64,000 bases of DNA. Source: a virus. Shown piece after piece: positions 2,721 to 50,126 of this stretch. The DNA lies in the IMG/VR virus record IMGVR_UViG_3300020391_000003, positions 64,001-128,000 of that record; one strand, given 5' to 3'. The notes below the pieces were generated by a model, which worked only from the letters and a program-made list of their open reading frames with translations, ran no database searches and was not told the DNA's origin. The stretch's first letter is position 1. The number at the start of each line of letters is the position of its first letter. Both the position numbers and the translations under genes were made by a program.

Positions 2721-3082
2721 GGGCGTGTTCTGGATTCGATTTTTATTGGATTAGTTCACTGCAAGCCGAAGAGGTGCCTGGCTTCGATAAAAGGCACAAG
2801 CGAATAAATGCTAAAAACATTAATTCTGTTGAATCCTTCTCTCAAGAAGGGCTCGCTCTTGCAGCTTAAGTCTGCAACCTCTCCTCAATTGACGCAGATA
2901 AATTGAATGAGGGGTCATCCATCTGCAAAACAGATAAAAGTTTACTTGTTTCACAAACTGTAAATAATTGAGACAATTAGTTTGATGTTAATATCATAAC
3001 TATAAAAAAAATTAACTAAGCTTGTAGACGTGAATCTCTTGATGATAAAAAGACGCGGGTTCAACTCCCGCCACGTCCACCA
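2721..3082 (+). ncRNA. ssrA: tmRNA; tag peptide AKNINSVESFSQEGLALAA* (2810-2869)
   Basis: 5' GGGCGTG pairs with 3' CACGTCC-ACCA with G3:U wobble; GGATTCGA D-loop-like motif; T-arm GCGGG-TTCAACT-CCCGC; tag ORF ends LALAA. Confidence 0.95.
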
Positions 3083-11013: not shown

Positions 11014-11859
11014 ATGGGCTACAATTCAATATCTTTTGGAACAAGCTGCATGGGCAGATTAAATCATTTAAGCCAAACTTATATCCACAATATAGAAACT
11101 GCATTAAGCGTAGATCGTAATTCAAAATTTGTTTTGTTAAATTATAATTCTCAAGATGGAATGCATGAGTGGGTGCAAGAAAATTTATCTAGCTACATTC
11201 AAAAAGGGACGCTTAAATATTTGCGCACATCTACTCCGCAAGAATTTTCGCAGTCTCACACTAAAAATATAACAAGTAAGCATGCAGATGCAGATATTGT
11301 TTGCCTACTAGATGCAGATCATTTTTTAACCAAGCGCTATGTTCAGCAAAATTTACTTTTCTTTAACCAAGAGTTCGACTCACACAAAATATCTAGACCA
11401 AAAGCAGAAGGAGGAAAAGGAGGAAGAATTGCTTTTCAAAAAAAAGATTTTTTAGAAATTGGAGGATTTGACGAACGCATGAAATGCTGGGGACACGAAG
11501 ATACAGACTTTCATTATAGATTCACGCATTACTTTGATAATGTATCAGAAATTACACCCGATATAGAAGAAGAATCAATCATACAGCATGATGACGATTC
11601 TAGAAATTCAAACTCAAAACTTACTGCGGCTCCCGCGATTCATTCAAAAGAAGAGTTTCAAAAATTTTGCAATACAATGAAATGGCATAGAACAAAAGCT
11701 CAGACTTTAGGAATAGATTTTGAGGAATATTTTAAACTTCATGGGCCAAGAATTATCAACAGAGAGTTTTCTGTAAGAATAGAAGAAGAATTTAACAAAA
11801 CTAAAGATTTTTCACTTATGATATCGAACAAAAATTTAGATTGGGGCAACCTTTCATGA
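11014..11859 (+). CDS. Glycosyltransferase (GT2 / galactosyltransferase C-terminal-like)
   Basis: CLLDAD DxD motif, IGGFDERMKCWGHEDTDF; start moved to ATG after upstream stop. Confidence 0.8.
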   Translation: MGYNSISFGTSCMGRLNHLSQTYIHNIETALSVDRNSKFVLLNYNSQDGMHEWVQENLSSYIQKGTLKYLRTSTPQEFSQSHTKNITSKHADADIVCLLDADHFLTKRYVQQNLLFFNQEFDSHKISRPKAEGGKGGRIAFQKKDFLEIGGFDERMKCWGHEDTDFHYRFTHYFDNVSEITPDIEEESIIQHDDDSRNSNSKLTAAPAIHSKEEFQKFCNTMKWHRTKAQTLGIDFEEYFKLHGPRIINREFSVRIEEEFNKTKDFSLMISNKNLDWGNLS

Positions 11860-17386: not shown

Positions 17387-17462
17387 GCCACCTTAGCTCA
17401 GTTGGTAGAGCACCTCACTTGTAATGAGGATGTCGTCAGTTCGACTCTGACAGGTGGCTCCA
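17387..17462 (+). tRNA. tRNA-Thr(UGU)
   Basis: 76 nt cloverleaf GCCACCT/AGGTGGC, anticodon arm CCTCA-CTTGTAA-TGAGG, TTCGA T-loop, encoded CCA. Confidence 0.96.
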
Positions 17463-38407: not shown

Positions 38408-38680
38408 ATGCACCCAAAAGTAGAACAACCTGTTGGTTCGTATACCGAATTTGAAAAGCTTGCCTGGATAAGCACCAAAGCAATTCCTGCCATAGGAAGT
38501 AAGCTGAATGTAAAAATTAATGGAATTGGCGAATCTATTGTTAAGAAGTATTTCGTAGAGTATGGCTTTATTGGGATGCTTGTTACTCCTCAGAATCCAC
38601 CTGCTTGGTACATCAAGCAAAACGGAAAAGGTGCTGATTGCCATGTTTATCCTGCTGAATGTGAAGAGCTAAGAGGATGA
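38408..38680 (+). CDS. Hypothetical protein
   Basis: 90 aa ORF. Confidence 0.6.
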   Translation: MHPKVEQPVGSYTEFEKLAWISTKAIPAIGSKLNVKINGIGESIVKKYFVEYGFIGMLVTPQNPPAWYIKQNGKGADCHVYPAECEELRG

Positions 38681-38686
38681 TTAACA

Positions 38687-38893
38687 ATGGACTGGATAGT
38701 TAGAACATACGACGAGCAAGACAATCAAATCTCGTCCTTTATTATACAGAATAGAACAGAGTCTCAGGCAGAGCGTGAGGCGATGCACGATACAGAAGTT
38801 AGATCCGCCGAAGATTGGAGTATGGAGGAATACAATGGAATGATTAACCCATCAGATAAAAGCAAAATAAATAAAAAAACTCTTGACAAATAA
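38687..38893 (+). CDS. Hypothetical protein
   Basis: 68 aa ORF. Confidence 0.55.
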   Translation: MDWIVRTYDEQDNQISSFIIQNRTESQAEREAMHDTEVRSAEDWSMEEYNGMINPSDKSKINKKTLDK

Positions 38894-38917: not shown

Positions 38918-39257
38918 ATAAATTTGAGAACAAAACTCAAATAAATAAAATAAATTGATCTTTAACATTTTAAACACTTTGGAAGGGCTTATAATCCTTC
39001 CTGTGGGTGACTGAGCAAGCCTGTGATGAGCGGGCTAAGGTACGCAGATTCCTTGTGGTGAGGTAGCAGAGTCCAATCGGATGAGCTGATGACGAATACC
39101 AAGTCTAATTTGTGGTGCGAAGTAGGAAACACTTGAACTGATGTTCATCCCGAAAAGTCGAGGGTATACAGTAATCCCTTCCCACACTAATTTTCTTAAT
39201 CATACAATCCCTAACCCTGTCCAAGACAAAGAAGAACCTCTTGGATGGGGTTTTTTT
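38918..39257 (+). ncRNA. Candidate structured ncRNA of unknown family (GC-richer core about 38981-39186)
   Basis: Promoter, leader hairpin ATTTGAG/CTCAAAT, boxA-like TGATCTTTAACA, ends of core complementary (GGAAGGG/CCCTTCC), internal hairpins, terminator. Confidence 0.65.
39214..39257 (+). terminator. Rho-independent terminator
   Basis: 13-bp stem ACCCTGTCCAAGA/TCTTGGATGGGGT (two G:U), 12-nt loop, T-run. Confidence 0.75.
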
Positions 39258-39724: not shown

Positions 39725-39769
39725 AAAAGTTTTGTGCAGCTCGGCCCCCCCTGCAATCGTATTGTGCAA
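39725..39769 (+). repeat. GC-palindrome/ATTGTGCAA element, copy E1
   Basis: AAAAGTT..GGCCCCCCC..TGCAATCGTATTGTGCAA, then TTGACA at 39791. Confidence 0.7.
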
Positions 39770-39824
39770 GAAATTAAATGAATTGTTTTCTTGACATTCA
39801 CATCAATTCTGTCATAATGAAGTA

Positions 39825-40262
39825 ATGATTAAGCGAGACTCCCGATACAAGATAAACTTCAACAAAAAAGTCTTTGTTTACAAAAACCTTCACAAAAACT
39901 GTTGGAGCGTAAAGCAAAGCGGATTAGTCAAAGCTCACGCTCTCGAATTGAATCTTTATGATTGCGTTCTCAAGGTCAGCAAAGCGGGTCAGCAAAGAGT
40001 GCGTAATGAAAAGTGTAAAAATGTTCATGCAGGTGTTAGCGGTTATCTTGAACCATACCACTTAGGATTGTCACACGAAGCAGAACTGAATGATGAAGCA
40101 AGAACATTTCAACGAGCTTGGGAAGGTTTACCAAATTCGCAGATGAGAGAGATTACTTACAATCCTTACAAGTATGACTCATTCGTTCATGCAGATGATC
40201 AAACTCCTCGTTGGTTTGGGTCTTTTGTAAGATTATTAGAAAATCAAGTATTTATTGCTTGA
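39825..40262 (+). CDS. Hypothetical phage protein
   Basis: VFVYKNLHKNCWSVK..KNVHAGVSG pattern. Confidence 0.7.
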   Translation: MIKRDSRYKINFNKKVFVYKNLHKNCWSVKQSGLVKAHALELNLYDCVLKVSKAGQQRVRNEKCKNVHAGVSGYLEPYHLGLSHEAELNDEARTFQRAWEGLPNSQMREITYNPYKYDSFVHADDQTPRWFGSFVRLLENQVFIA

Positions 40263-40293
40263 CTCAAACACCCCCAAATGATAGGATACATTT

Positions 40294-40527
40294 ATGACAC
40301 AATCACAAATTAGAGAAATGATTATTCAACTCACGAAGGGTAATCTCGCATGGGCAGATCCAATGTCTAAAGTTTGCCTTGATCAACACGAACTTCATCC
40401 CAAAAAGTTTCCGCTTGGCAGTACTTTTCAGTCAGCAGAAGAAGTTTTGGATGACATCATTTCAGACTTGACATCTTTCAGAGATGAGCTTAGAATAGAA
40501 TCATCTTTTCAATCAGCACAATTGTAA
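40294..40527 (+). CDS. Hypothetical protein
   Basis: 77 aa ORF. Confidence 0.6.
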   Translation: MTQSQIREMIIQLTKGNLAWADPMSKVCLDQHELHPKKFPLGSTFQSAEEVLDDIISDLTSFRDELRIESSFQSAQL

Positions 40528-40543
40528 ACAAAAGGAAAAAATT

Positions 40544-40954
40544 ATGGGATTAGATCAATACGGATACGCAGTTCCCAAAGAGGAATCTGAAGCTAGAAAC
40601 GAATTAGCTTATTGGCGAAAGCACAACAGGCTACAAGGTTGGATGGAACAACTTTGGAATGACAAAGGCAGACCAAATGCACAAACAGATGGTAATGCCA
40701 TGGGCGACTTTAATTGTGTTGACCTAGAGCTAGATGCCGATGACATTGATGCTTTGGAAGAAGCAATTGAAAATTTCGCTTTGCCCGAAACACAAGGTTT
40801 CTTTTTTGGAGATGATTCCTACCTATGGGAAAGTGAAGATGGCAATCCTTCTTCGGCAAATTATTTTCACAAAGAGCAGGACTTGCAATTCGTTGAAGAA
40901 GCAAGAAAAGCTCTTGACAAAGGCGACAAAGTTGTTTATCATTGTTGGTATTGA
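40544..40954 (+). CDS. Hypothetical phage protein
   Basis: MGLDQY..YWRKHNRLQGWM..FNCV pattern. Confidence 0.7.
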   Translation: MGLDQYGYAVPKEESEARNELAYWRKHNRLQGWMEQLWNDKGRPNAQTDGNAMGDFNCVDLELDADDIDALEEAIENFALPETQGFFFGDDSYLWESEDGNPSSANYFHKEQDLQFVEEARKALDKGDKVVYHCWY

Positions 40955-40956
40955 TT

Positions 40957-41157
40957 ATGAAAGAACTACAAGACATTATTAACGATCTGCAAGCTAGACT
41001 AGCAATAGTTGGTGGAGGCAGAATTATTATTACTAGCGATGATGTTTCAATTAGCTTGGGAGAAGAACACGAAAACTTTGAGGTTCAAGAAAAAAGTAGT
41101 TGTGATTCTCTGACCAATCCCGATGTTGAAATGTACAACCAAATGTGGGGACAATAA
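40957..41157 (+). CDS. Hypothetical protein
   Basis: ATG 2 nt after upstream stop. Confidence 0.5.
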   Translation: MKELQDIINDLQARLAIVGGGRIIITSDDVSISLGEEHENFEVQEKSSCDSLTNPDVEMYNQMWGQ

Positions 41158-41158
41158 A

Positions 41159-41374
41159 ATGAACAATTACATTGATGCAATTTGCGAAGGACAACCTCTT
41201 GAGTTACCATCTTATGATCAAGACTCCGACATGTGGAGCCTTTGGTTTGAAGAATCAGATACTCCTTGGCATCCTTACTTTCAAAAAGATTTAATCGAGG
41301 TTCATTTCGAATCTCAAGCGGAAGCAGAAAGTGCTTATCACCATTACTCACAACCTAACGAAGGGATTTCATGA
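41159..41374 (+). CDS. Acidic hypothetical protein
   Basis: ATG 1 nt after upstream stop. Confidence 0.55.
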   Translation: MNNYIDAICEGQPLELPSYDQDSDMWSLWFEESDTPWHPYFQKDLIEVHFESQAEAESAYHHYSQPNEGIS

Positions 41375-41533
41375 ACAAGTCTAGAATCGAAAGATTAAGA
41401 ATGCAAGTTCGCGAAATAGGCCACAAGCTAGCAATCACTGAGAAACGTGGACTGCAAGGCAAGGACCATTTCGCTCAAAAAATTGCGCACGGTTTATTAT
41501 TGGACCAATTGTACAAGTTGGAAAAAAGAGTCT

Positions 41534-41593
41534 AAAAGTTGACCTATTCGCGGGCGGGGGCCCCCCGCTAACCTATCCGGTTTTATTGTTGCA
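41534..41593 (+). repeat. GC-palindrome element, copy E2
   Basis: AAAAGTTGACC..GCGGGGGCCCCCCGC..ATTGTTGCA, then TTGACA at 41620. Confidence 0.75.
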
Positions 41594-41655
41594 TAATTCA
41601 ACTAAATGCAAAAAAGGTGTTGACAGGATCGCTCTTTTACTTCATAATTATACTT

Positions 41656-41832
41656 ATGAAAACAATTGATTGCACACCAACATGGAAAACAGCAGTAAGA
41701 ATTTTGACCGAAGTTCTTAAAAACCCAAAAGCCGGACACGCAGACAAGTCCAATGCCACAAACGAATTGCTTAGGCTTGCAGAGATTGTGGACAAACAAA
41801 ATGCACTTAATCGCAAAAAAAAGCTTGACTAA
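41656..41832 (+). CDS. Small hypothetical protein (start corrected)
   Basis: TTGACA(41620)-17-CATAAT, ATG 7 nt later. Confidence 0.6.
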   Translation: MKTIDCTPTWKTAVRILTEVLKNPKAGHADKSNATNELLRLAEIVDKQNALNRKKKLD

Positions 41833-41892
41833 CACTAAAAAATTTCGTATAATTAAAGCTTCAAAGACAATAACTCAAACCTTAAAAAAAGT

Positions 41893-42645
41893 ATGAATAA
41901 CAGAATTAATCTCTCAGTATGTGCCACAAAAGAATCTTCTTTCGAGGATGTCAAAGCAGTTGCCACTCCTCAAGCAACAGATTCATGGCAACCAATCAGT
42001 CACTCGTTTCTTGTGGATCGAGTTCAAAACCAAATGCAAGACAATGGTTGGGAAATCGTTAACACTTATCATTCTCTTCATCGTTATGGTCAGCGTTACT
42101 TTGGCTTGTTCCATGTTAAGAACACAGGCGTTGACAATGACGAGCGTGGAACTATTGTAGGACTTCGCAACTCGCATGACAAATGCTTTCCTGCAGGTCT
42201 TTGCATGGGCAATGCTCCATTTGTTTGCTCAAACCTTATTTTCACAAACGAGGTTGTTCTTGCTCGCAGACACACCAAAAACATTTTGAATGACTTGTCT
42301 CAAGTTATTGCTCGCACTCTTGGCAAAATGACTGAGACTTGGGCAAGCGATGAGCAACGCATTCAAGCTTACAAGCAGTACGAGCTTGGCAACGAGCAAG
42401 CTCATGACCTTGTGATTCGTGCGTATCAAAATGGTGCAATCAGCAAAGCTAAGATTGCAGATGTTGTTGAGCAATGGCACAAGCCCGAACACGATGACTT
42501 CTCTGAGAGAACCATGCACTCTCTTTACAATGGTTTCACTCACATTCTCAAAGGTGGTATTACCGCATTGCCAAATCGTTCTGTCGCACTTCATGGAGTT
42601 CTTGACTCCGAAGTTGGCTTGACCTCGCAAGTATCAGTTTCTTAA
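41893..42645 (+). CDS. DUF932-like protein
   Basis: WQPISH, IVGLRNSHDK, PFVCSNLIF, RRHT, LYNGFT pattern. Confidence 0.7.
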   Translation: MNNRINLSVCATKESSFEDVKAVATPQATDSWQPISHSFLVDRVQNQMQDNGWEIVNTYHSLHRYGQRYFGLFHVKNTGVDNDERGTIVGLRNSHDKCFPAGLCMGNAPFVCSNLIFTNEVVLARRHTKNILNDLSQVIARTLGKMTETWASDEQRIQAYKQYELGNEQAHDLVIRAYQNGAISKAKIADVVEQWHKPEHDDFSERTMHSLYNGFTHILKGGITALPNRSVALHGVLDSEVGLTSQVSVS

Positions 42646-42676
42646 TCTCAAACCTAAACCTAAACTTAAAATTATT

Positions 42677-42907
42677 ATGAGCATAGAACCAAAACTCCAA
42701 AATGTAGTTGACTCTCTCAAGGGTCGTTTCGTTTCCCTTCTTGTCAAAAAAGGCGAGCAAAGGAAAGTGTATTCCGCTAAGGTCATTAATGTCACACCTC
42801 GCAATGTGATGTTTCAAGACACCAATGGTGGAAATCGTCGGATCAATCGTCGCCATGTGCTTCGAGCCACTTGCTCAAACAAGACTTTCAAAAGGTCGGT
42901 GAGTTAA
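42677..42907 (+). CDS. Hypothetical protein
   Basis: 76 aa beta-rich ORF. Confidence 0.6.
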   Translation: MSIEPKLQNVVDSLKGRFVSLLVKKGEQRKVYSAKVINVTPRNVMFQDTNGGNRRINRRHVLRATCSNKTFKRSVS

Positions 42908-42911
42908 TTGG

Positions 42912-42960
42912 TTGCTCCAAATATGGAGTAAATTGCTCCAAATACGGAGCCAAATATGAG
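42912..42960 (+). repeat. Tandem mini-hairpin repeat TTGCTCCAAATAYGGAG x2 plus a partial third copy
   Basis: Copies at 42912-42928 and 42933-42949, each CTCC/GGAG. Confidence 0.75.
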
Positions 42961-42984
42961 CCTCCCTTCGGGGAGGCTTTTTTT
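42959..42984 (+). terminator. Rho-independent terminator
   Basis: AGCCTCCC-TTCG-GGGAGGCT followed by T-run. Confidence 0.92.
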
Positions 42985-43020
42985 GCGGACATCAACTGAC
43001 TGATTCAATTGCATTATAGC

Positions 43021-43060
43021 ACTATCAGGGCAGGGGGCCCCCGGCGATAGAATTGTGCAA
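43021..43060 (+). repeat. GC-palindrome/ATTGTGCAA element, copy E3
   Basis: CTATC..GGGGGCCCCC..GATAG-AATTGTGCAA, then TTGACT at 43082. Confidence 0.75.
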
Positions 43061-43116
43061 AAACTTAGTTGAATTTTAGACTTGACTTTGCAAGTTAATC
43101 TGTCATAATTGTAACC

Positions 43117-43857
43117 ATGATTAAGACAACTCTACTCACATCAGGTAATCAAAAAATTCTCAAAGGCGAGAAGATGGGTTACATCACCAAAGGAATTCAT
43201 CTTGCACCAGCAAATCTTGCAGGCTACGAAGTTTGCCAATGGCGTTCCAAAGGATGCACGGCATCTTGTCTCAACACAGCAGGTCGTGGACAAATGAATT
43301 CTGTTCAGCAATCACGCATTGCCAAGACAAAGTTATTTTTTGAAGAACGCAAAGAGTTTATGATTAAGCTTTGTAAAGAGATTGCAAGCACCATCAAGTC
43401 GGCACAGAAAAAGCGTATGCAAGCTGTTTTTCGTCTTAACCTTACGAGCGACATTAAATGGGAAGATGTGTTCATGAAAGATCCGGATTACAACATTTTC
43501 GAGTATTTTTACGCAATTCAATTTTACGATTACACCAAGTCTTTCAAAAGAATGTGTGCTTTTCTAGACAAGCCTTTTGCCAAGGATGAACCAAAATTTC
43601 CTTCCAATTATCATTTAACTTTTTCTCGCTCAGAACACAACGACAAAAAGTGTGAGATGGTTCTTGCAATGGGTGGTAATGTTGCGGTAGTATTTCGTAA
43701 TCAGTTGCCCAAAACTTGGAAAGGTTACGAAGTTGTTAATGGTGATGAAACTGATTTACGCTTCCTTGACAAGCGTGGCGTTGTTGTCGGGCTTATCGAA
43801 AAAGGCATGGCAAAGAAAGATCAAACAGGTTTTGTTCAGGAAGGAATTGACTCTTGA
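43117..43857 (+). CDS. Gp88-like phage protein (Cys-rich)
   Basis: LAPA..VC..GC..CLNTAGRG, RLNLTSDI, FYDYTK, YHLTFSRSE, GDETDLRFLD..VVGL. Confidence 0.7.
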   Translation: MIKTTLLTSGNQKILKGEKMGYITKGIHLAPANLAGYEVCQWRSKGCTASCLNTAGRGQMNSVQQSRIAKTKLFFEERKEFMIKLCKEIASTIKSAQKKRMQAVFRLNLTSDIKWEDVFMKDPDYNIFEYFYAIQFYDYTKSFKRMCAFLDKPFAKDEPKFPSNYHLTFSRSEHNDKKCEMVLAMGGNVAVVFRNQLPKTWKGYEVVNGDETDLRFLDKRGVVVGLIEKGMAKKDQTGFVQEGIDS

Positions 43858-43888
43858 CATTTGAATTAAACTCAACTATTATTAAAAC

Positions 43889-44050
43889 ATGGATTATTAC
43901 GAATCAGCCGAAGGAGAAATCATTTCAAAAGCTCGTGCCTTGAAAGAATTAGAAGATCATTGTTGCGAAGACATCGAGCAATTTTTTGATGATTTAGGAG
44001 ATCACGAAGAGTATGATGCCCAAAAAGTTTTGGCATGGTTGGGTTATTAA
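43889..44050 (+). CDS. Small acidic protein (53 aa, not in track)
   Basis: TTGACA(43854)-17-TATTAT, ATG 6 nt later. Confidence 0.6.
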   Translation: MDYYESAEGEIISKARALKELEDHCCEDIEQFFDDLGDHEEYDAQKVLAWLGY

Positions 44051-44098
44051 TTTTAATTTAAGTGTTGACAAACAAACTCAATCTGTCATAATTAAATC

Positions 44099-44221
44099 AT
44101 GAAAGCAACCAAAGTCAAAGTAAGAATCCCGATGATTTTTACCAAGTCAAGACCTCACAAAGTCAAAGCTAGAACTTTGCACCGAAAACTAAAACACAAG
44201 GAAAAACTATGCGATTACTAG
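44099..44221 (+). CDS. Basic microprotein (40 aa, not in track)
   Basis: MKATKVKVRIPMIFTKSRPHKVKARTLHRKLKHKEKLCDY; own promoter. Confidence 0.6.
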   Translation: MKATKVKVRIPMIFTKSRPHKVKARTLHRKLKHKEKLCDY

Positions 44222-44451
44222 AAAACGAAAGCCTCGGCAAGCCCGAACAAAATGCTGATACGATTATGCAAATTTGCCTTGATCTTATTCACGATGTTTT
44301 GATTGCTCCTGCAAGAGCAAACGATACTCTTAGCCAAGAGCAAGAAGAAATTTTGAATGAAACTAGAAGCGTTCTTCTGATCATCGCAGACAAGGCAAGA
44401 ACTTACGAAAGAATATTTGAGGAAGGAGACAATGCAAGCCTCAAAAACTAA
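44209..44451 (+). CDS. Hypothetical protein
   Basis: 80 aa ORF. Confidence 0.55.
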   Translation: MRLLENESLGKPEQNADTIMQICLDLIHDVLIAPARANDTLSQEQEEILNETRSVLLIIADKARTYERIFEEGDNASLKN

Positions 44452-44641
44452 TAAATTCCTTATCACAAAAAGCAAAGACGGATGCGTAGTCGCAATCTCA
44501 GCAGACAAAAAGACTAGTCCGACAGATGTTTTTATTGGACAAACAACCATGCAAAAGAACATCAAGAATGGCACATTCGTCAAGCACTCAACCTTAACCT
44601 TTAACGACAAACCTCTTTATGTTTATTCTCAAGACCTTTAA
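44432..44641 (+). CDS. Hypothetical protein
   Basis: AGGAG upstream of ATG 44432. Confidence 0.5.
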   Translation: MQASKTNKFLITKSKDGCVVAISADKKTSPTDVFIGQTTMQKNIKNGTFVKHSTLTFNDKPLYVYSQDL

Positions 44642-44963
44642 TGATTTAAATTTTCAGCCTCACGCTCACGCAAAAGACATGGGCGTTCAAGCATCCATGA
44701 CTTTCGACAATGGGTATTCTATTAGTGTTGTCGCAAATGACGAAGGAGGCGATTGCTTTTACGGCAATCATCCCGACACTTACGAAGTTGCCGTCTTCAA
44801 TCAGCGTGGTGATTTTGTGCCATTACAACCTCACGATGATGTTCTGGGCTGGCAAGACTCTTTGCAAGTATCCAAGTTGATGTCTCAATTTCAGCAAGAT
44901 GGACTGCAACAAGAAAAACTTTTGCGTTCAATTAAAGATGAGGAGCAAAAGTCTCTGTTTTAA
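44619..44963 (+). CDS. Hypothetical phage protein
   Basis: FDNGYSISVV..YEVAV..DVLGW pattern. Confidence 0.65.
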   Translation: MFILKTFNDLNFQPHAHAKDMGVQASMTFDNGYSISVVANDEGGDCFYGNHPDTYEVAVFNQRGDFVPLQPHDDVLGWQDSLQVSKLMSQFQQDGLQQEKLLRSIKDEEQKSLF

Positions 44964-45007
44964 ATACAATAGTCAAATACAATTGCCAAATACACAAATA
45001 CAAATAC
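44962..45007 (+). repeat. Five AAATAC copies at the point where transcription converges
   Basis: Copies at 44962, 44975, 44988, 44996, 45002. Confidence 0.6.
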
Positions 45008-45040
45008 AGTTATTGACAGCTGTATAATTGACCAATTTTA

Positions 45041-45089
45041 TTGCACAATCCGTCTGCGGGGGGCCCCCCGATCAGATCGGTCAACTTTT
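45041..45089 (-). repeat. GC-palindrome/ATTGTGCAA element, copy E4
   Basis: TTGCACAAT 45041, perfect palindrome CGGGGGGCCCCCCG 45057-45070, AACTTTT 45083. Confidence 0.8.
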
Positions 45090-45256
45090 TGATCGTTTAG
45101 TTAAAAAAGCGGAGCGAGTGCCAAGAACATTAAGGTAGGCGGTAGTATTATGCAACTTATTTCGAAGATTGTCATTGACTTATTCTCCTTTATCTGTGAC
45201 CGCTCTGATCATGCCGATTGTGAACGATACAACTAAGATTATGGTTAATTCCACAA

Positions 45257-45547
45257 TTATTGATCTTCGAAGATTTCACGCATCGAACCACTTATGCAAT
45301 TCATGTCTGTGAGGTTTTCGTCATTGTCGAAGTCTTCATCTTCTTCAGCTTCGACTGCATCGAGAGAAACGAATTCGTCCTCGACATCGTTTTGATTTGC
45401 TTCGAGCAAACCATGTTCAATGACCAAGTCCTCGGCAAGCTTTTCAGCTTTGAGGTCTTCCATGTAATTTGCAAGTCTTGGATCGAGCTTGTTGTCGCTT
45501 TGAGCGACTGCGTTTGCGATGATTGCGAGTCTTTGTGATTCTGTCAT
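45257..45547 (-). CDS. Acidic hypothetical protein
   Basis: Own minus-strand promoter TTGACA-16-TATAAT, ATG 7 nt later. Confidence 0.65.
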   Translation of the reverse strand: MTESQRLAIIANAVAQSDNKLDPRLANYMEDLKAEKLAEDLVIEHGLLEANQNDVEDEFVSLDAVEAEEDEDFDNDENLTDMNCISGSMREIFEDQ

Positions 45548-45783
45548 GGTGTTAATTATAAGGATTTTAAGTAATGTGTCAAGCTTTAAGATTGAGAAAC
45601 TAGATCGAAAAGCATTTGAGCTTTTTGATTCTCGACAATTTCATCGAGTTCAATTTGAGCAGAGATTACAAGCTGTTGGCTTGAAATGCAACCTGCTTCG
45701 GCAAGTGGAGTGTGAAGGCGAATTATTTCTTTGAGTTCTGTGATTTTTTCCATGATTCTATTCTAAGGATTAAAGGTTAAAGG

Positions 45784-45996
45784 TCAAGAAAAAAGATAAG
45801 GAAATTCTTCTTCATCAAAAAGCCCCAAAGCCTCAAAATCGTGTCTTTGAATCTCTTGCGTGAGCTTTGCGATCTCGTCTTGCAAGTGTTGCACATGAGC
45901 GGCACGAATCGAGCGAGTCGATTCCTTGCGTGAGCGATTGAGTTTATCTTGCCACCAAGCAAGATCTTTTTGGAGTTTTTCTAATTTCTTAATCAT
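45784..45996 (-). CDS. Coiled-coil hypothetical protein
   Basis: 70 aa ORF. Confidence 0.55.
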   Translation of the reverse strand: MIKKLEKLQKDLAWWQDKLNRSRKESTRSIRAAHVQHLQDEIAKLTQEIQRHDFEALGLFDEEEFPYLFS

Positions 45997-46015
45997 ATCT
46001 ACAAAAGGTTAAAGG

Positions 46016-46198
46016 TTAAGCAAAAAAAGGATGGATCTCAATTTGCCAAGGCATGAAGTTAAACCGATATTGAGAGCGGTACAACCTGCAAGTAATTAAC
46101 TTGCCAAGGCTATCTTTGCGGGCAAAGCCCACGACTTGAAAGGTTTTACCCTTGTGAACGCCATACTTGACGCGAACGACATCTTTTAATTTGAACAT
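46016..46198 (-). CDS. Small KOW/SH3-like protein
   Basis: FKLKDVVRVKYGVHKGKTFQVVG pattern. Confidence 0.55.
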   Translation of the reverse strand: MFKLKDVVRVKYGVHKGKTFQVVGFARKDSLGKLITCRLYRSQYRFNFMPWQIEIHPFFA

Positions 46199-46233
46199 AA
46201 TTTAAAGTAACATAGTTAAAGAGAAAAAGCAAA

Positions 46234-46422
46234 TTATTTTTTGCAGTTATTTATCATTGCCAAGCTGTCTTGAGCTTTCCATTCGTCAAGCCAAGCTTTA
46301 TTCTTTGCCAAAAGATCCCGGGCAATGCTGACCATTTCGGAATCGGTATCGTAGGCGATGATCTCCCGAAGGATTACCATCTCGGCTTTAACTTTTGAAG
46401 TGAGGCTAACTGATTTATTCAT
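46234..46422 (-). CDS. Hypothetical protein
   Basis: 62 aa ORF. Confidence 0.55.
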   Translation of the reverse strand: MNKSVSLTSKVKAEMVILREIIAYDTDSEMVSIARDLLAKNKAWLDEWKAQDSLAMINNCKK

Positions 46423-46540
46423 AAGTATAACATAGCAAAAAAAACCGAAAAAAGCGAGAAAAAAAACGCTATTATTTGCGTTTGTAGCGTAGCTTATAAG
46501 CTTATAAGCCGGACTTAAGATGTACTATTCGATTGCCTTA

Positions 46541-46589
46541 TTGCACAATCCGGCCTCCGGGGGGCCCCCGATAGAATCGGGTAACTTTT
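46541..46589 (-). repeat. GC-palindrome/ATTGTGCAA element, copy E5
   Basis: TTGCACAAT 46541, CGGGGGGCCCCCG, AACTTTT 46583. Confidence 0.8.
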
Positions 46590-47205
46590 AAGCTATTTGA
46601 GGCAATTCAGACATTCTGGCTCTTAACGAAACTTGTCTTGCCTCCTTCTGCCATCTTTGTTTACTATTGCTCCATCTTTTTTCTCTTGAAGTATTGTTTA
46701 ATGAAAAAGTGCCATGGTGCATTTTATTAATCGAACTGCAAAGCTCTCTCGTTTCGCCTAGTGAAAAGGCTCTATTTTTAACATACTGAGATGCTTGACT
46801 CCAAATTGTTTTCATTTTTTGAATTTCTTTATTTACTTTTATTTTGAAAAATTGAACATCAACCAAATTGTTTGGATCGCCATCATGAAAACCAACAACA
46901 ACAACCAATCCTTTTTTGAAGGATTTTAATTTTCTTTCTACATCTCCAAGACTAATGAAAGCGTTTTTAATGTTGTAGTATTTTACTTCCCAATTTCCTT
47001 GCAGTTCTTCGGGAACATTGCCTTGAGCCACAATCTCGGCAGGAAAATCAACTTCTGCATTATGTTGTTCGTACTTTGGAAAATTGAATTGTTCGGCAAG
47101 GAAGTTCTCGAAAGCTTTTCCGTGCTTACCTTTTTGCTTATTGTGAGCTTTTATATTTCTGATATGTTTTCTGATCTTTGAGTAGTTTTTTTGAAGCAAT
47201 TTCAT
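46588..47205 (-). CDS. Restriction-endonuclease-like PD-(D/E)XK protein
   Basis: GKAFE..EVDF..WEVKY arrangement. Confidence 0.5.
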   Translation of the reverse strand: MKLLQKNYSKIRKHIRNIKAHNKQKGKHGKAFENFLAEQFNFPKYEQHNAEVDFPAEIVAQGNVPEELQGNWEVKYYNIKNAFISLGDVERKLKSFKKGLVVVVGFHDGDPNNLVDVQFFKIKVNKEIQKMKTIWSQASQYVKNRAFSLGETRELCSSINKMHHGTFSLNNTSREKRWSNSKQRWQKEARQVSLRARMSELPQIA

Positions 47206-47376
47206 AATTTTTTAGTTTTAGCAATTTTGATTTATAGTTTATAGATTAAATATTTTTTACATAATGTCAATAGTTTTCTTCAGAAAAGATTGATTTCCAC
47301 ATGATGTAAAAAACAAAAGACCAAGGCAGTACAAGAAACAGGATATCATAATTCATGATTTATTTTGGTTGAGTTA

Positions 47377-47637
47377 TTAGTAAACGAATTGCTCGGTTGA
47401 GTCAACAAAGGAATGCTCGACGGAAACCTCTTCGGTGTTCCATGCGTTGCCTTCTAGGCGACGAGCTTCAGACAAAGCCCAAAAGTGATCAAGGTCTTGG
47501 TCAAGATGAGCCGAAACCTTGGTATTGAAAACTCTCGTTTCGGTTGGGTCTTCGACTGAAGACTGCACGATGCGAAGAGTGACATTGAGAAACTCGACTC
47601 TGCGAGTGGGAACATTTCTATTTGAAGTATTTAACAT
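47377..47637 (-). CDS. Hypothetical protein
   Basis: Own TTGACT promoter, ATG 6 nt after -10. Confidence 0.6.
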   Translation of the reverse strand: MLNTSNRNVPTRRVEFLNVTLRIVQSSVEDPTETRVFNTKVSAHLDQDLDHFWALSEARRLEGNAWNTEEVSVEHSFVDSTEQFVY

Positions 47638-47684
47638 AATTTTAATCTAACGAATTTTTTTGTGAAAGTCAAGAAAAAAGTTTA

Positions 47685-48146
47685 TTATTTTAATTCCCAA
47701 AGTTCGGGATGAGAAGCCCAATGAAAAACGAATCGACCTTGATTTTGTTGGGCAAATTCAATTTCAAACTGAGAAGGCTCCACACCATAACGCAAACGAA
47801 AGTTTGCCTCAGATGCAGAAATGCCAAGCTCTTTTTTAAGCTTAACAACTTCACCCATGCGTGGACGAGCAAGTTTGTTCTTGAAAGTTTTTTCAAGCTT
47901 TGGAGCTTTTGGAGCAAAGGTTGAGGAATCAACTTGAAAACGCTCGGGAGCGGATTCATTCCAAAGGGTAGCAACTTCGGCAGGGTCTTTGCCGTTTACA
48001 ACAAGGTTGTGAGCCATTGACTCAAGAGATTTGCGAGCATCTCTGCCACGACTCCAAACTGAGTGATCATCAGCAAAGTTGAAGAACCAATCATGAGATT
48101 CTAAAGCGTTTATAAAGTTTGTTAGAGCATTATCAATCTTAATCAT
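47685..48146 (-). CDS. Hypothetical protein
   Basis: LESHDWFFNFADDHSVWSRG motif; own promoter. Confidence 0.65.
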   Translation of the reverse strand: MIKIDNALTNFINALESHDWFFNFADDHSVWSRGRDARKSLESMAHNLVVNGKDPAEVATLWNESAPERFQVDSSTFAPKAPKLEKTFKNKLARPRMGEVVKLKKELGISASEANFRLRYGVEPSQFEIEFAQQNQGRFVFHWASHPELWELK

Positions 48147-48194
48147 AATTACAATGTAGCATAAAAAGTGTTAAAAGTCAAGAAAAAAATGAAT

Positions 48195-48341
48195 TTATTT
48201 TAGGGCTTCCACGATCATCTCAAGAGTCCAAAGGTGACCACCTGGGCATTCCCAAAGATCAAAAGCCTCAGACATCGGGCTTACTTGAATGCGAACAAGA
48301 TCATTATCTTGTATGAATTGTACTATTTCTTTATCTAACAT
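48195..48341 (-). CDS. Small hypothetical protein (48 aa, not in track)
   Basis: MLDKEIVQFIQDNDLVRIQVSPMSEAFDLWECPGGHLWTLEMIVEALK; directly behind the E6 promoter. Confidence 0.55.
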   Translation of the reverse strand: MLDKEIVQFIQDNDLVRIQVSPMSEAFDLWECPGGHLWTLEMIVEALK

Positions 48342-48367
48342 ACCTACAAACTAAACCATAAAACCCG

Positions 48368-48446
48368 AAAAGTCAAGAAAAACTTTCAACTATTTTATTG
48401 CACAATCCTGTTGCGGGGGGGCCCTCCAGAGGATAAGATAACTTTT
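48368..48446 (-). repeat. Element copy E6, including a 39-bp promoter-containing repeat
   Basis: 39-mer AAAAGTCAAGAAAAACTTTCAACTATTTTATTGCACAAT at 48368-48406, GGGGGGGCCCTCC, AACTTTT 48440. Confidence 0.85.
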
Positions 48447-48451
48447 TAAAG

Positions 48452-48661
48452 CTATCCGTTATACTTGTATTTTTTGTCTTGCTCGTAGGCTTCTGCCCAC
48501 ATTGCAGCTTCGTGATCATCTGCGATCTCGACAATTTCAGCGTCATCGCCATAAGACTTGAGTCTTTCGCTTTTGAATTCTTCGATGTTTGCAATTCCAC
48601 CGAGTTCGAAGATTCTTTCTTTATCTCCGAGATAGTATTTGATTTTAACTTTCTTAAACAT
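48452..48661 (-). CDS. Acidic hypothetical protein
   Basis: TTGACT-17-TAGGTT, ATG 6 nt later. Confidence 0.6.
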   Translation of the reverse strand: MFKKVKIKYYLGDKERIFELGGIANIEEFKSERLKSYGDDAEIVEIADDHEAAMWAEAYEQDKKYKYNG

Positions 48662-48687
48662 ACCTATAACCTAGCACAAGAACTGCA

Positions 48688-48726
48688 AAAAGTCAAGAAA
48701 AACTTTCAACTATTTTTTTGCACTAT
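48688..48726 (-). repeat. Second copy of the 39-bp promoter repeat (2 mismatches)
   Basis: AAAAGTCAAGAAAAACTTTCAACTATTTTTTTGCACTAT. Confidence 0.85.
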
Positions 48727-49046
48727 TCAACTGGAGGAAGAACTTGCCTTGTAGTATTGGGTTCGTGAGTCTTAACGAACCAAGCGGATGGGTCAATGAT
48801 TTGACCGTTTAGGCAAGCCTCAAAGTCAACTTGATGAAAGCCTAATCCTGTTATTCCGTTGACTCTTTCTCTTGTGGTTGGTGTATTCCAACCTGCAAGC
48901 GTAGCCATCACCAAACCGCTAGGATCACGGGTTACAATCTTGTTGCCATGCAACCAAACGCTTTCTCCGTCGGTGTGAGTATTGCCAACGGTTTTCGCTT
49001 GGCGGTTTTCAAATGCTTGTTTTATTTGTTCTGTGACTTTTCGCAT
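48723..49046 (-). CDS. Hypothetical phage protein (start corrected)
   Basis: MRKVTEQIKQAF..LHGNKI..AGWNTPTTRERVN. Confidence 0.65.
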   Translation of the reverse strand: MRKVTEQIKQAFENRQAKTVGNTHTDGESVWLHGNKIVTRDPSGLVMATLAGWNTPTTRERVNGITGLGFHQVDFEACLNGQIIDPSAWFVKTHEPNTTRQVLPPVE

Positions 49047-49048
49047 AA

Positions 49049-49291
49049 TTATTTTTTGTGTGTTAATTCTATTTGAAGATTTGTTGCTTGTTGCACAAAG
49101 TTGAGAGCATCTAGGATCGCTTGACCCTGAGTAATTGAGCCTTGCCAATCAGAAGAACTTGAGACTTCAGCGAGGAACTGCAGGTTACCTTGAGCTTTGG
49201 AAAGTAGTTGCACAATGTCAAGCTGTTTGGAAGCACGATTGCCGAGCTTGGTCATTGAAAGAATTTTTTCGCGTTCGGTTAAGTTTTGCAT
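49049..49291 (-). CDS. Hypothetical protein
   Basis: Own promoter TTGACA..TAGAAT, ATG 6 nt later. Confidence 0.6.
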   Translation of the reverse strand: MQNLTEREKILSMTKLGNRASKQLDIVQLLSKAQGNLQFLAEVSSSSDWQGSITQGQAILDALNFVQQATNLQIELTHKK

Positions 49292-49331
49292 GATTCTATT
49301 CTAGTGATTTGGTTGCTTGTGTCAAGCTTTA

Positions 49332-49532
49332 TTATTGAAAAACGACATTAAAACGAAACTGATTGAGACCTTCGTCTCGCATTATTCGATTGAGATGAGA
49401 TTGACTTGAAGCAGTGCGAACGCGTGGGCGTTCGTTGCCTTCTGCATCGACTCCTTGGTCGAAGATTTTGACAGCCCAATGGGTTGACCATCTTTTAATT
49501 CTTACTTGTATTGTTTTATTATTCTTAATCAT
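49332..49532 (-). CDS. Small basic hypothetical protein
   Basis: 66 aa ORF. Confidence 0.55.
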   Translation of the reverse strand: MIKNNKTIQVRIKRWSTHWAVKIFDQGVDAEGNERPRVRTASSQSHLNRIMRDEGLNQFRFNVVFQ

Positions 49533-49584
49533 ATTTTTAATCTAATCTATTTTTTACTAAAAGTCAAGCTTTTTTTTAATTATT

Positions 49585-49770
49585 TTACTCCCATTCGGAG
49601 TGATGACCAAAGTCGATGTCCTCGACTTCTTGGAAGTCAAGGAGTGCAACCTTGTCCTGAAGGTCGCCGATTTCGTTGCGAATTGCAACAAGGTCAGCGG
49701 AAGTGAGAACGGAGTCCGCGAGGACTTCGCGAAGGAGAGAGATTTTGTTGAGCATTTCGGACTTAGTCAT
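49585..49770 (-). CDS. Coiled-coil hypothetical protein
   Basis: 61 aa ORF. Confidence 0.55.
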   Translation of the reverse strand: MTKSEMLNKISLLREVLADSVLTSADLVAIRNEIGDLQDKVALLDFQEVEDIDFGHHSEWE

Positions 49771-49846
49771 AATTTTTTTTGCGTTAGGTTTTCTTAATGT
49801 TATATTTACAATCTATCAGATGAATCGGTAAAAGTCAAGTTTTTTT

Positions 49847-49909
49847 TTACTTTTTTTTAATTATTTTAGTGAGGATAAGAATTTTTTCTCTTTCGGTCAA
49901 GTTTGTCAT
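49847..49909 (-). pseudogene. 20-codon remnant paralogous to the N-terminus of 49049-49291
   Basis: MTNLTEREKILILTK vs MQNLTEREKILSMTK. Confidence 0.55.
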
Positions 49910-49967
49910 TTTTATATTTGTTATATTGTTTATCTTATTATGTATATAACATAGCACAGAAACGCAC

Positions 49968-50006
49968 AAAAGTCAAGAAAAACTTTCAACTATTTTATTG
50001 CACAAT
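49968..50006 (-). repeat. Third copy of the 39-bp promoter repeat (identical to 48368-48406); element E7
   Basis: Exact match 1600 bp downstream of the first copy. Confidence 0.9.
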
Positions 50007-50126
50007 GCTGCTACCCCACCTACCTAACCCTACCCATTAAATGAATTAATTTTGCAATCGTATTGTGCAGCAACCGCCGGGGGTGGTTTTTTTCAATATG
50101 AAATTCATTTTATAATTTTTATTACA

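Follow-up and report, generated by a model that had tools for sequence, protein, structure and literature searches.

A block of small genes in this phage is punctuated by units made of a GC palindrome, the box ATTGTGCAA and a promoter, and the question is whether these are real elements and, if so, whether they make a cassette system of a new kind. The source phage is uncultured and marine, with a genome of 184,324 bp, 34% GC and a completeness rating of 100%; no close isolate was found, and a gp23-type capsid had no match in the genome. We analysed a 64-kb stretch of it (64,000 nucleotides, the window) together with the whole genome and related marine contigs (L numbers). The units between the small early genes are real elements, and the block of small ORFans that carries them is a hyperplastic region. 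With a probability of about 0.7, we regard them as a variant, particular to this lineage, of the PeSL (promoter-early stem-loop) modules known from earlier work and not as a new kind of system.

PeSLs of the T4-type coliphages RB49 and phi1 are conserved modules of about 100 bp between the small ORFans of hyperplastic regions, and contain an upstream stop codon, an AT-rich region, near-consensus sigma70 -35 and -10 hexamers and a stem-loop which is often polyG-polyC (Arbiol et al. 2010, PMC2839356). Lineage-specific PeSL/PmSL variants were described in PST/T4 and nt-1/KVP40 (Comeau et al. 2014, PMC4122927). The features of the window are as follows.

39725..39833, + strand: E1 (nhmmer E 5e-9); AAAAGTT 39725-39731, C7 tract with no G run 39742-39751, box ATTGTGCAA 39761-39769, 21-nt AT-rich gap, -35 TTGACA 39791-39796, -10 CATAAT 39813-39818, ATG 39825; the gene behind encodes 145 aa and is L5 gp82-like (Pfam)
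41534..41658, + strand: E2 (nhmmer E 5e-8), with orthologous copies in L084-L087 and L100; AAAAGTT 41534-41540, overlapped by the stop TAA 41533-41535, G5C6 41556-41566, box variant ATTGTTGCA (1-nt insertion) 41585-41593, gap of 26 nt, -35 41620-41625, -10 41643-41648, ATG 41656
42958..42984, + strand (sense): canonical intrinsic terminator just upstream of E3, 9-bp stem and T7
43022..43119, + strand: E3 (nhmmer E 6e-10); inverted repeat CTATC...GATAG flanking G5C5 43022-43050, AAAAGTT absent, box 43052-43060, -35 43082-43087, -10 43104-43109, ATG 43117; the gene behind encodes 246 aa (phrog_1617)
45041..45090, - strand: E4 (nhmmer E 3e-15), at the convergence point of the + and - gene blocks; box 45041-45049, G6C6 45058-45069, AAAAAGTT 45083-45090, no promoter behind; on the + strand the hairpins are followed by CAACTTTTT
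46459..46483, - strand: canonical sense-strand terminator downstream of E5, before the promoter of the next gene
46541..46589, - strand: E5 (nhmmer E 4e-13), with an orthologue in L084; AAAAGTT 46583-46589 with the stop codon abutting, G5C6 (sense strand) 46559-46569, box 46541-46549, with no promoter at the expected 21 nt
48339..48447, - strand: E6 (nhmmer E 4e-13); AAAAAGTT 48440-48447, G3C7 (sense strand) 48415-48424, box 48398-48406, 21-nt UP-like gap, -35 48371-48376, -10 48348-48353, ATG 48341 (48-aa gene)
48659..48726, - strand: extra coreless module copy; box variant ATAGTGCAA 48718-48726, which shares bases with the stop codon of the gene upstream, -35 48691-48696, -10 48668-48673, ATG 48661
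49847..49918, - strand: truncated gene-start duplicate, copying the start of the gene 49049-49291 (MxNLTEREKIL...)
49948..50035, - strand: E7, the same junction being conserved in relatives; G-rich tract 50014-50035 replacing the palindrome, box 49998-50006, -35 49971-49976, -10 49948-49953

GGGGSCCC matched 17 times at five sites in the 64-kb window (41556, 43033, 45059, 46560 and 48417) against 0.32 expected, and G5-7C3-6 runs are restricted to these window sites in the whole 184,324-bp genome, which agrees with the remark of the initial annotation that such runs are unusual in this AT-rich genome. There are 14 exact copies of ATTGTGCAA in the genome, six of them in elements; the others are intragenic with no promoter behind. 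A nhmmer profile of the core matched E1-E6 only (E 3e-15 to 5e-8), all six in the small-gene block, and the module is present in about 130 related marine contigs, confined to that block. E1-E3 lie on the + strand and E4-E7 on the - strand, following the genes and converging at E4, so the mirror arrangement around 45.0 kb was read correctly. The seven elements first listed are present far above chance, but six of them are profile cores and E7 is a box with a promoter only. Their consensus of AAAAGTT plus G/C palindrome needs exceptions for E1 (C7 without a G run), E3 (no AAAAGTT) and E7 (G-rich tract), and E4 and E5 depart from the claim that most are followed by a TTGAC promoter, since neither has one at standard spacing. 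The 39-bp promoter repeat in three copies was confirmed: the near-identical 39-nt core lies at 48318, 48638 and 49918, and the total repeat is about 93 nt long. The truncated gene start behind one copy was also confirmed; it has 81% identity over 42 nt (49877-49918 against 49259-49300), codes for about 20 aa only, and is a recombination relic.

In gene direction, the full unit consists of an upstream stop codon fused to AAAAGTTG(A/C)CCGAT, the palindrome G3-7 C3-8, the box GGAT(T/C)GTGCAAT, a 21-nt UP-like AT-rich stretch, a near-consensus -35, a (TG-extended) -10 and the ATG. E4, E5 and E6 share a gap of 33 nt from AAAGTT to the box with a varying interior, as had been noticed (as 42 nt, counted between motif starts), and in unique copies of the relatives this gap is 32 nt (n=23), 33 nt (n=5), 31 nt (n=1) or 34 nt (n=1). 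The gap from the box to the -35 is exactly 21 nt in five promoters (E1, E3, E6, E7 and the extra copy at 48718) and in 79/104 instances among relatives, and in promoters with this gap the box centre lies near -60.5. The information content of the box in relatives equals that of the -35. A G3+C3+ run lies at most 45 nt upstream in 43% of box promoters versus 2% of other promoters, and a box comes after 63% of the clade's unique G/C runs. The left and right boxes are mutually complementary (77.5% of cells pair, against 27-40% with a slid partner). Conserved blocks at fixed distance alternate with saturated variable stretches; this suggests sequence-specific recognition, which the plain PeSL model leaves unexplained. 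Genome-wide, the commonest distances from the -10 to the ATG are 6 nt (19 promoters) and 7 nt (12), and because the ATG is this close, the mRNA would begin on the start codon (leaderless).

In sigma70 promoters, the class I activator CRP binds at -61.5 and the UP element spans -38 to -59. The 21-nt stretch of the marine modules is A/T-rich in the UP-element pattern, and the quasi-palindromic box near -60.5 is on the same helical face as a class I site; unlike such sites, it has no known binding factor, and no catalogued bacterial motif was found to match it. The box is absent from the other early promoters of the phage, tightly packed promoters of the same family can dispense with it, and between the window and L084 two of six boxes have changed, with no extra conservation.

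The predicted hairpins gave RNA folding energies of -8.6 to -19.1 kcal/mol with z of -1.8 to +0.7 against dinucleotide shuffles, so stability above shuffled sequence was not found and the proposed extrudable hairpin is weak; E4 (z -1.8) is the sole copy whose fold pairs both boxes. RNAalifold returned no consensus structure for the elements, no covariation was found, and on the sense strand the hairpin has no U-run after it. Like Rho-independent terminators, the units have a GC-rich inverted repeat positioned after a gene, but they differ in the missing sense U-tract, in the offset antisense run of 4-5 U and in shuffle-level stability, and the genuine terminators of the phage look different and co-occur with the cores, adjoining E3 and E5. 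Judged from these features, the hairpins are not canonical terminators, and the reading as ordinary terminators was not supported. Because of this folding behaviour, the missing U-run and the neighbouring canonical terminators, an insulator or terminator role would rest on analogy with PeSLs.

The block is highly mosaic in its gene content, with 181 non-redundant indels or replacements among relatives which are 88-99% identical. Indel junctions of close relatives lie within modules, spanning the G/C run to the -10, and often carry direct repeats of 9-145 bp; among 25 clean indels with such repeats, the -35 is inside the repeat in 14, and one has a 97-bp repeat from the G/C run through to ATGATTAAG. 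In L061 a 237-aa gene stands between two elements, and in L064 one hybrid element takes this place, its crossover lying within the UP-like stretch. An HNH-like gene is bounded by 24-bp promoter repeats, and gene indels between L039 and L040 have repeats at the -35 and -10 on their flanks. Differences between the element at L039 13123 and its orthologue at L040 9117 are confined to the left half of the core, which matches L039's own paralogues, a pattern that reads as gene conversion between copies. L084, with 93-97% nucleotide identity to the window, carries an additional 72-aa gene between the E3 promoter and the 246-aa gene. The two also differ by a 401-nt cassette (element and tRNA-like RNA) inserted directly past the stop codon at 44050. 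L084 lacks three genes that come after E5, one of them (70 aa) standing behind an E6-like element elsewhere; the right half of E6 (about 62 nt, from the G/C run to the promoter spacer) is common to L084 while both flanks are unrelated; and the gene upstream of the extra copy near 48718 is followed in L084 by a full core. Close relatives have therefore had genes inserted, deleted, replaced or relocated by in-module crossovers, and breakpoints of gene gain, loss and movement lie within the elements as the shuffling idea held. Junctions fall in promoter modules only 1.8-fold above the modules' 26% share of sequence, computed with a permissive module definition, and selection for intact genes alone would already put surviving breakpoints between genes.

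Crossover points are dispersed across the module (G/C run, UP-like region, -35, spacer and -10). A RecA-family gene is encoded, while no tyrosine or serine recombinase was found in the genome rated 100% complete. The dispersed crossovers and the missing recombinase point to homologous recombination between repeats and away from site-specific exchange at the hairpin. The hairpin immediately past each cassette's stop codon and the cassette-level gene turnover do recall integron attC sites. An integron-like system, in which a dedicated site-specific recombinase exchanges cassettes at a folded hairpin, is nevertheless rejected as having practically no chance of being correct, because no such integrase was found in the phage, every cassette has its own promoter, and crossovers are scattered over about 100 bp with long direct repeats.

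The likeness to the RB49 and phi1 PeSLs covers the module size, the hyperplastic ORFan setting, the stop, AT-rich, sigma70 and stem-loop parts, the indels and replacements of close relatives with in-module crossovers, and the degraded 'half' copies. The marine modules differ in having no Shine-Dalgarno sequence before the leaderless ATG (6-7 nt past the -10), in keeping the stem-loop at a constant position ahead of the promoter and not between or over the -35 and -10, and in adding the conserved boxes AAAAGTTGaCCGAT and GGATyGTGCAAT at fixed spacing; the phage also lacks the gp23-type capsid match and the close isolate. Promoter activity, terminator activity and mini-circles belong to the RB49/phi1 PeSLs, whereas the marine modules are known here from sequence alone. 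As in the PeSL/PmSL variants (PMC4122927), stem-loop and promoter consensus differ from lineage to lineage, modules cluster at gene-content differences, and degraded copies keep part of the module; however, the stems there are A3-4G3...C3T3-4 or AGNA...TCNT, mRNAs of those phages are SD-led, and a -60 box is not described there. The idea of a distinct cassette system was thus not borne out, since the units match published PeSLs, whose stem-loops are often polyG-polyC too.

It is possible, though doubtful, that the core of about 48 bp is chiefly a protein-binding site, where a dimeric phage or host factor would hold two inverted half-sites (TTGnnCRATCC) on either side of the G/C tract, spaced by 41-42 bp or about four helical turns. 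The core would then serve promoters of this class as an operator or activator site, or would help recombination, and in box-only promoters one half-site would be used, at -60.5, where class I activators sit. The complementary boxes, their spacing of 32-33 nt in 28/30 unique copies around varying sequence, and a box conserved as strongly as the -35 at a fixed 21 nt agree with this; folding at shuffle level argues for conservation of sequence, not structure, and the PeSL authors speculated likewise on protein binding to GGGG...CCCC (PMC2839356). However, none of the block's ORFans was recognised as a candidate DNA-binding protein, literature matches to the box were only primers and eukaryotic C/EBP sites, promoters without the box are the rule outside this family and occur within it, and the constant length may be mere inheritance. 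Related lineages swap the G/C tract for unrelated AT-richer inverted repeats, which is a better fit to 'any hairpin'.

We consider it rather unlikely that the cores are direction-specific terminators against transcription entering the block from the wrong side, with E4 stopping the + block, E5 and E6 as back-ups, and E1 and E2 stopping read-through from the - block. The strand opposite the genes does have CAACTTTT(T) after the hairpins, a consensus scan gave + strand terminator-like sites in E4 (45068-45080, 45078-45095) and E5 (46567-46581), the sense-side A-run is conserved in the alignment, and both the mirrored arrangement and the canonical sense-strand terminators beside E3 and E5 would suit it. 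But the T-run, no longer than 4-5 nt, begins about 5 nt past a weak stem of 5-6 bp, whereas clear terminators of the phage have T7-8 immediately after the stem; E3 and the relatives' AT-rich variants (TAAGTTAC type) have no T-run on either strand, and on the antisense strand A-C mismatches take the place of the G-U pairs of the sense fold. Mobile GC clusters are known in the AT-rich yeast mitochondrial DNA, and by comparison core and box could be a selfish GC-rich palindromic insertion element, entering the UP-like sequence of early promoters and duplicating about 10 bp, with shuffling as a by-product. The units are GC-rich within a 34% GC genome, the near-repeats TAAAAAGTTG and TAAAATAGTTG flank the core, same-family promoters without core and box exist with the upstream stop codon directly before AAAATAGTTGAAAG, and the closest relatives by protein identity (L033-L036) have no cores while L084 has them. 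This is improbable even so: no filled and empty site pair differing by the element alone was found, all indels seen carrying genes too, box-only copies and AT-rich hairpin variants misfit one discrete mobile unit, and no transposase or recombinase is encoded.

On the preferred reading as PeSL-type modules, the promoter part would be a strong early promoter for host RNA polymerase and the -60 box an upstream promoter or regulatory element, while the GC stem-loop may insulate adjacent units by attenuating read-through or protecting the upstream mRNA 3' end. Since near-identical stretches of 60-100 bp recur in direct orientation every few hundred bases, they would be a substrate for the phage's own RecA-family recombination system, or for template switching. 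The elements are thus probably intergenic joints in an array of single-gene early cassettes, and recombination between their copies would shuffle self-expressing cassettes and keep the copies homogenised.

The seven intergenic elements E1-E7 appear, from their sequence, to be promoter-early stem-loop cassettes (PeSLs), an already known kind of module, in a clade outside the T4-type isolates studied so far, because they show every sequence-level feature of that class except a Shine-Dalgarno (SD) sequence. The class is defined by conserved modules, each about 100 bp long, that lie in hyperplastic regions and comprise the stop codon of the upstream gene within AT-rich sequence, an early promoter of sigma70 type, a neighbouring stem-loop, often polyG then polyC, that stops or weakens transcription, and an SD with start codon; promoter and terminator activity, within-module crossovers and mini-circles were shown for them (Arbiol et al. 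2010, PMC2839356; Comeau et al. 2014, PMC4122927).

The IMG/VR record, of which the window is bases 64001-128000, has 184,324 bp and is rated 100% complete, and the GC content of the phage DNA is about 34%. Genes for RIIA-like protein, PhoH, DNA ligase and UvdE were identified. By megablast, the block had no DNA-level match among isolated phages, and tblastn with RIIA against isolates found distant homologues only, the best with 24-33% amino acid identity. T4 Gp23-type capsid (PF07068) had no match in the phage, by a search that was not validated by control genomes. Homologues of the phage DUF1501 protein were all on phage contigs among the 120 listed, and a scan of genome contigs with the M64 protease yielded a Runella fragment only. 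The window also carries a tmRNA at 2721-3082 with tag peptide AKNINSVESFSQEGLALAA and a tRNA-Thr(UGU) at 17387-17462, both called by ARAGORN.

There were about 27 small genes or ORFs between 39.7 and 50.1 kb. The genes as far as 44963 read on the + strand and those between 45257 and 50.0 kb on the - strand, which bears out the convergence at about 45.0 kb proposed in the initial annotation. The block proteins are nearly all ORFans, with a family match in only five of the proteins tested, and the block is hyperplastic, with gene order and content different in every relative compared. The elements thus resemble PeSLs in lying between small, mostly ORFan genes of a hyperplastic region with variable content among relatives. 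Just 5' of the block is a manA RNA (RF01745, 74 bits; 38981-39190) preceded by a consensus promoter at 38883; in this region the related contig L084 has a 95-nt insertion and the window about 176 nt extra at 38679-38854. From the last + gene to E4 (44964-45012), at the convergence point, there are five near-tandem AAATACA copies (TGTATTT on the - strand), and a similar TGTATTT-rich tract also follows the equivalent element in L061, L064 and L084.

The full unit, in gene orientation, starts with a stop codon fused to AAAAGTTG, followed by CCGAT and the G/C palindrome; its 3' part is GGATTGTGCAAT, 21 nt of AT-rich sequence, the -35, a 17-nt spacer, the -10, 6-7 nt and the ATG. The right box, ATTGTGCAA, lies between the G/C tract and the promoter and contains a quasi-palindrome ATTGnnCAAT centred near -60.5 (taking the -35 as -35 to -30). 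Such lineage-specific boxes are also added in each PeSL lineage. The palindromes had been singled out as unusual, and GGGGSCCC, with 0.32 expected, is indeed found at five sites, each of them within a reported element. G5-7C3-6 runs were found at element sites only in the whole genome, as palindromes in E2-E6. Of the 14 exact copies of ATTGTGCAA in the 184 kb, six belong to elements, and the remaining ones are intragenic, without a promoter behind. The nhmmer profile from elements and relatives matched only E1-E6 in the genome.

The fixed spacing of left and right box was confirmed, with an AAAGTT-to-box gap of 33 nt in E4, E5 and E6; unique copies in relatives had gaps of 32 nt (23 copies), 33 nt (5), 31 nt (1) and 34 nt (1). 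Exactly 21 nt separate the box from the -35 in five promoters: E1, E3, E6, E7 and the additional copy at 48718. The promoter repeat was present in its three copies, as described, and so was the truncated second copy of a gene start. The common consensus for seven elements held in part: the units are real, but E1 has no G run, E3 has no AAAAGTT, E2 has a 1-nt insertion in the box and a 26-nt gap to the -35, and E7 has the box and promoter but lacks the remaining features. A promoter following most elements was likewise partly right. E1, E2, E3, E6, E7 and the 48718 copy have one that is sigma70-like by sequence (-35, about 17 nt, -10, AT-rich upstream), as in PeSLs, but E4 and E5 have none and correspond to the published "degraded" copies.

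The divergence point beside phoH (50014-50095) combines a G-rich tract on the - strand with a canonical terminator and a second, inverted box (50062-50070), an arrangement kept in L048, L059 and L061; E1 and this site have the 17-mer TGCAATCGTATTGTGCA in common. A strand-asymmetry rule for G-run versus C-run length was rejected, being broken by E1 and several + block copies. G- and C-run lengths differ by one base between the window and L084 in E1, E2, E4 and E5, which could be homopolymer slippage or assembly error.

Genome-wide, the distance from the -10 hexamer of sigma70-type promoters to the ATG opening an ORF is 6 nt at 19 promoters and 7 nt at 12, and this short distance is a trait of all promoters of the phage, not of the modules only. 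Examples in the window are as follows.

39813-39827, -10/ATG pair
43104-43119, -10/ATG pair
45555-45547, -10/ATG pair

It means that the early mRNAs should be leaderless, starting on the start codon itself. Each gene would then need its own promoter, which would account for the one-promoter-per-gene layout of the block. No SD was found in the modules, where the start codon is present, since a -10 only 6-7 nt from the ATG leaves no room for it; this differs from the published modules, which have an SD. Genes behind box promoters very often open with ATGATTAAG (Met-Ile-Lys), for example at 39825, 43117 and 48146, so the conserved module reaches into the first codons. This start may be part of the recombining unit, or be of use in leaderless translation.

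About 130 related marine contigs were collected with one pattern scan and two scans anchored on proteins, and comparisons with relatives rest on loci of up to 20 kb. The module of box, UP-like stretch and -35 was present in most relatives having at least 70% identity in the 246-aa protein. The 21-nt gap between box and -35 was kept in 79 of 104 instances, and the box has the same information content as the -35. The GC core is confined to a subset of relatives, yet it is closely tied to the box. A G3+C3+ run lies upstream of 43% of box promoters versus 2% of other promoters, and of the unique G/C runs, 63% have the box behind them. In some lineages the left box is of the AAGTT(G/A)C type and an AT-richer, unrelated inverted repeat separates it from the right box, and the same promoter family also occurs without box and core, the upstream gene ending directly at the UP-like stretch. 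In some relatives the element promoter directly drives a tRNA-like RNA of about 100 nt (L084:11056-11156; L039, about 11215-11320; L078, about 470) with a GGTTCGA T-arm, a long variable region and a weak tRNA-Sec-like Rfam match (19.8 bits), but no ARAGORN call; this cassette is missing from the window at 44050/44051.

Gene content in the block is extremely mosaic, with 181 non-redundant indels or replacements between contig pairs 88-99% identical. The proposal that gene gain and loss breakpoints coincide with the elements was upheld by junctions that were read base by base and lie inside the modules. PeSLs show the same indel and replacement crossovers inside the module. Two elements enclose a 237-aa gene in L061; at this place L064 has a single hybrid element whose crossover maps to GAAAGTTTTT, between box and -35. 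A second gene of L061, missing from L064, has a 24-bp repeat of the promoter -35 region on both sides:

L061:13208-13771, - strand, HNH-like gene, 187 aa (PF01844 weak, E 0.002, below cut-off)

L039 and L040 differ in gene cassettes whose boundary repeats lie at the -35 and the -10, and one such cassette is a promoter driving a tRNA-like RNA. In clean indels with junction repeats of 9-145 bp, the -35 was inside the repeat in 14 of 25, and one 97-bp repeat spans from the G/C run to ATGATTAAG.

L084 is 93-97% identical to and collinear with the window, with orthologues of E1-E5. Compared with the window, it carries an inserted gene of 72 aa at the E3 promoter, with the repeated -10 region on its flanks, and a 401-nt cassette (full element plus tRNA-like RNA) placed exactly after the stop codon at window 44050. 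Three window genes after E5 are missing from L084, and one of them (70 aa) was found elsewhere in it, behind an E6-like element. The right half of E6 (about 62 nt, from G/C run to promoter spacer) is common to both, with both flanks unrelated. The 48718 copy is a derived junction, its box joined directly to a gene's stop codon; in L084 a complete core follows that gene. In the orthologous core at L039 13123 and L040 9117, the left half alone differs and in L039 has the sequence of its own paralogues, which indicates gene conversion between copies. The crossovers are thus distributed along the entire module.

As mechanism, homologous recombination between the dispersed direct repeats, or template switching between them, has the best support and would shuffle the cassettes. 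It is favoured by the dispersed crossovers, by the lack of a tyrosine or serine recombinase (PF00589, PF00239) in the complete genome, and by an encoded RecA-family protein:

G000:C1:164899-165498, - strand, RecA-family recombinase gene (PF00154, E 1.4e-17), outside the window

Integron attC cassettes are promoterless and moved by the tyrosine recombinase IntI, which works on the hairpin, whereas here each cassette has its own promoter and neither recombinase family was found. Global enrichment of junctions in promoter modules was only 1.8-fold under a permissive definition, and selection for intact genes alone would already leave surviving breakpoints between genes. Stronger evidence comes from the direct repeats found at the junctions.

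The elements share with PeSLs an adjacent stem-loop of the frequent polyG-polyC type, the folds here being modest and not above shuffles. Folding energies of six cores on either strand were at shuffled level (z -1.8 to +0.7), RNAalifold found no consensus structure in 24 aligned cores, and only the E4 fold gave a long hairpin pairing both boxes. Intrinsic terminators have a stable GC stem and, right behind it on the transcribed strand, a U-tract. The sense strand showed no U-run 3' of the hairpin, and the antisense strand has CAACTTTT(T) after the cores, a weak, offset T4-5 tract which several variants lack; canonical terminators (stem then T7-8 directly) are found immediately ahead of E3 and behind E5. 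Hence the cores are no canonical terminators, and the reading as stable hairpin or terminator was rejected on z-scores near 0 and the terminator scan. Rfam 15 gave no match to the elements at E <= 1, the manA RNA being the sole match over gathering score in 38.5-50.5 kb. What is conserved is sequence blocks at fixed distance plus the capacity for some GC-rich stem.

The two boxes are mutually complementary (TTG-C with G-CAA, CGATCC with GGATyG). Hand-drawn box-box pairing was satisfied in 77.5% of cells, versus 27-40% with the partner slid, but covariation in it did not exceed that of shuffles. A left-box TTGAC acting as -35, set in register by cruciform extrusion, was judged too speculative. 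Another reading takes left box, G/C tract and right box as one recognition site of about 48 bp for a dedicated phage or host protein, which would co-regulate the leaderless early-promoter sub-class from -60 and might target or stimulate cassette recombination. We regard this full scheme as unlikely, and a protein reading the two boxes as hardly less doubtful. The PeSL authors speculated that GGGG...CCCC may bind a protein (PMC2839356); searching the literature with the box motif gave only primers and eukaryotic C/EBP sites. If true, the box-reading protein would be the interesting part of the finding, and under the full scheme shuffling would be protein-guided, not a passive by-product of repeats.

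With the elements taken as PeSLs, promoter/stem-loop cassette shuffling, known from T4-type phages of enterobacteria and vibrios, would extend to an abundant uncultured marine phage clade. Every early gene of this clade would be a self-contained leaderless unit, which gives an annotation rule: one promoter per gene, with the transcript from the ATG. Module shuffling would also account for the extreme ORFan turnover in the block.
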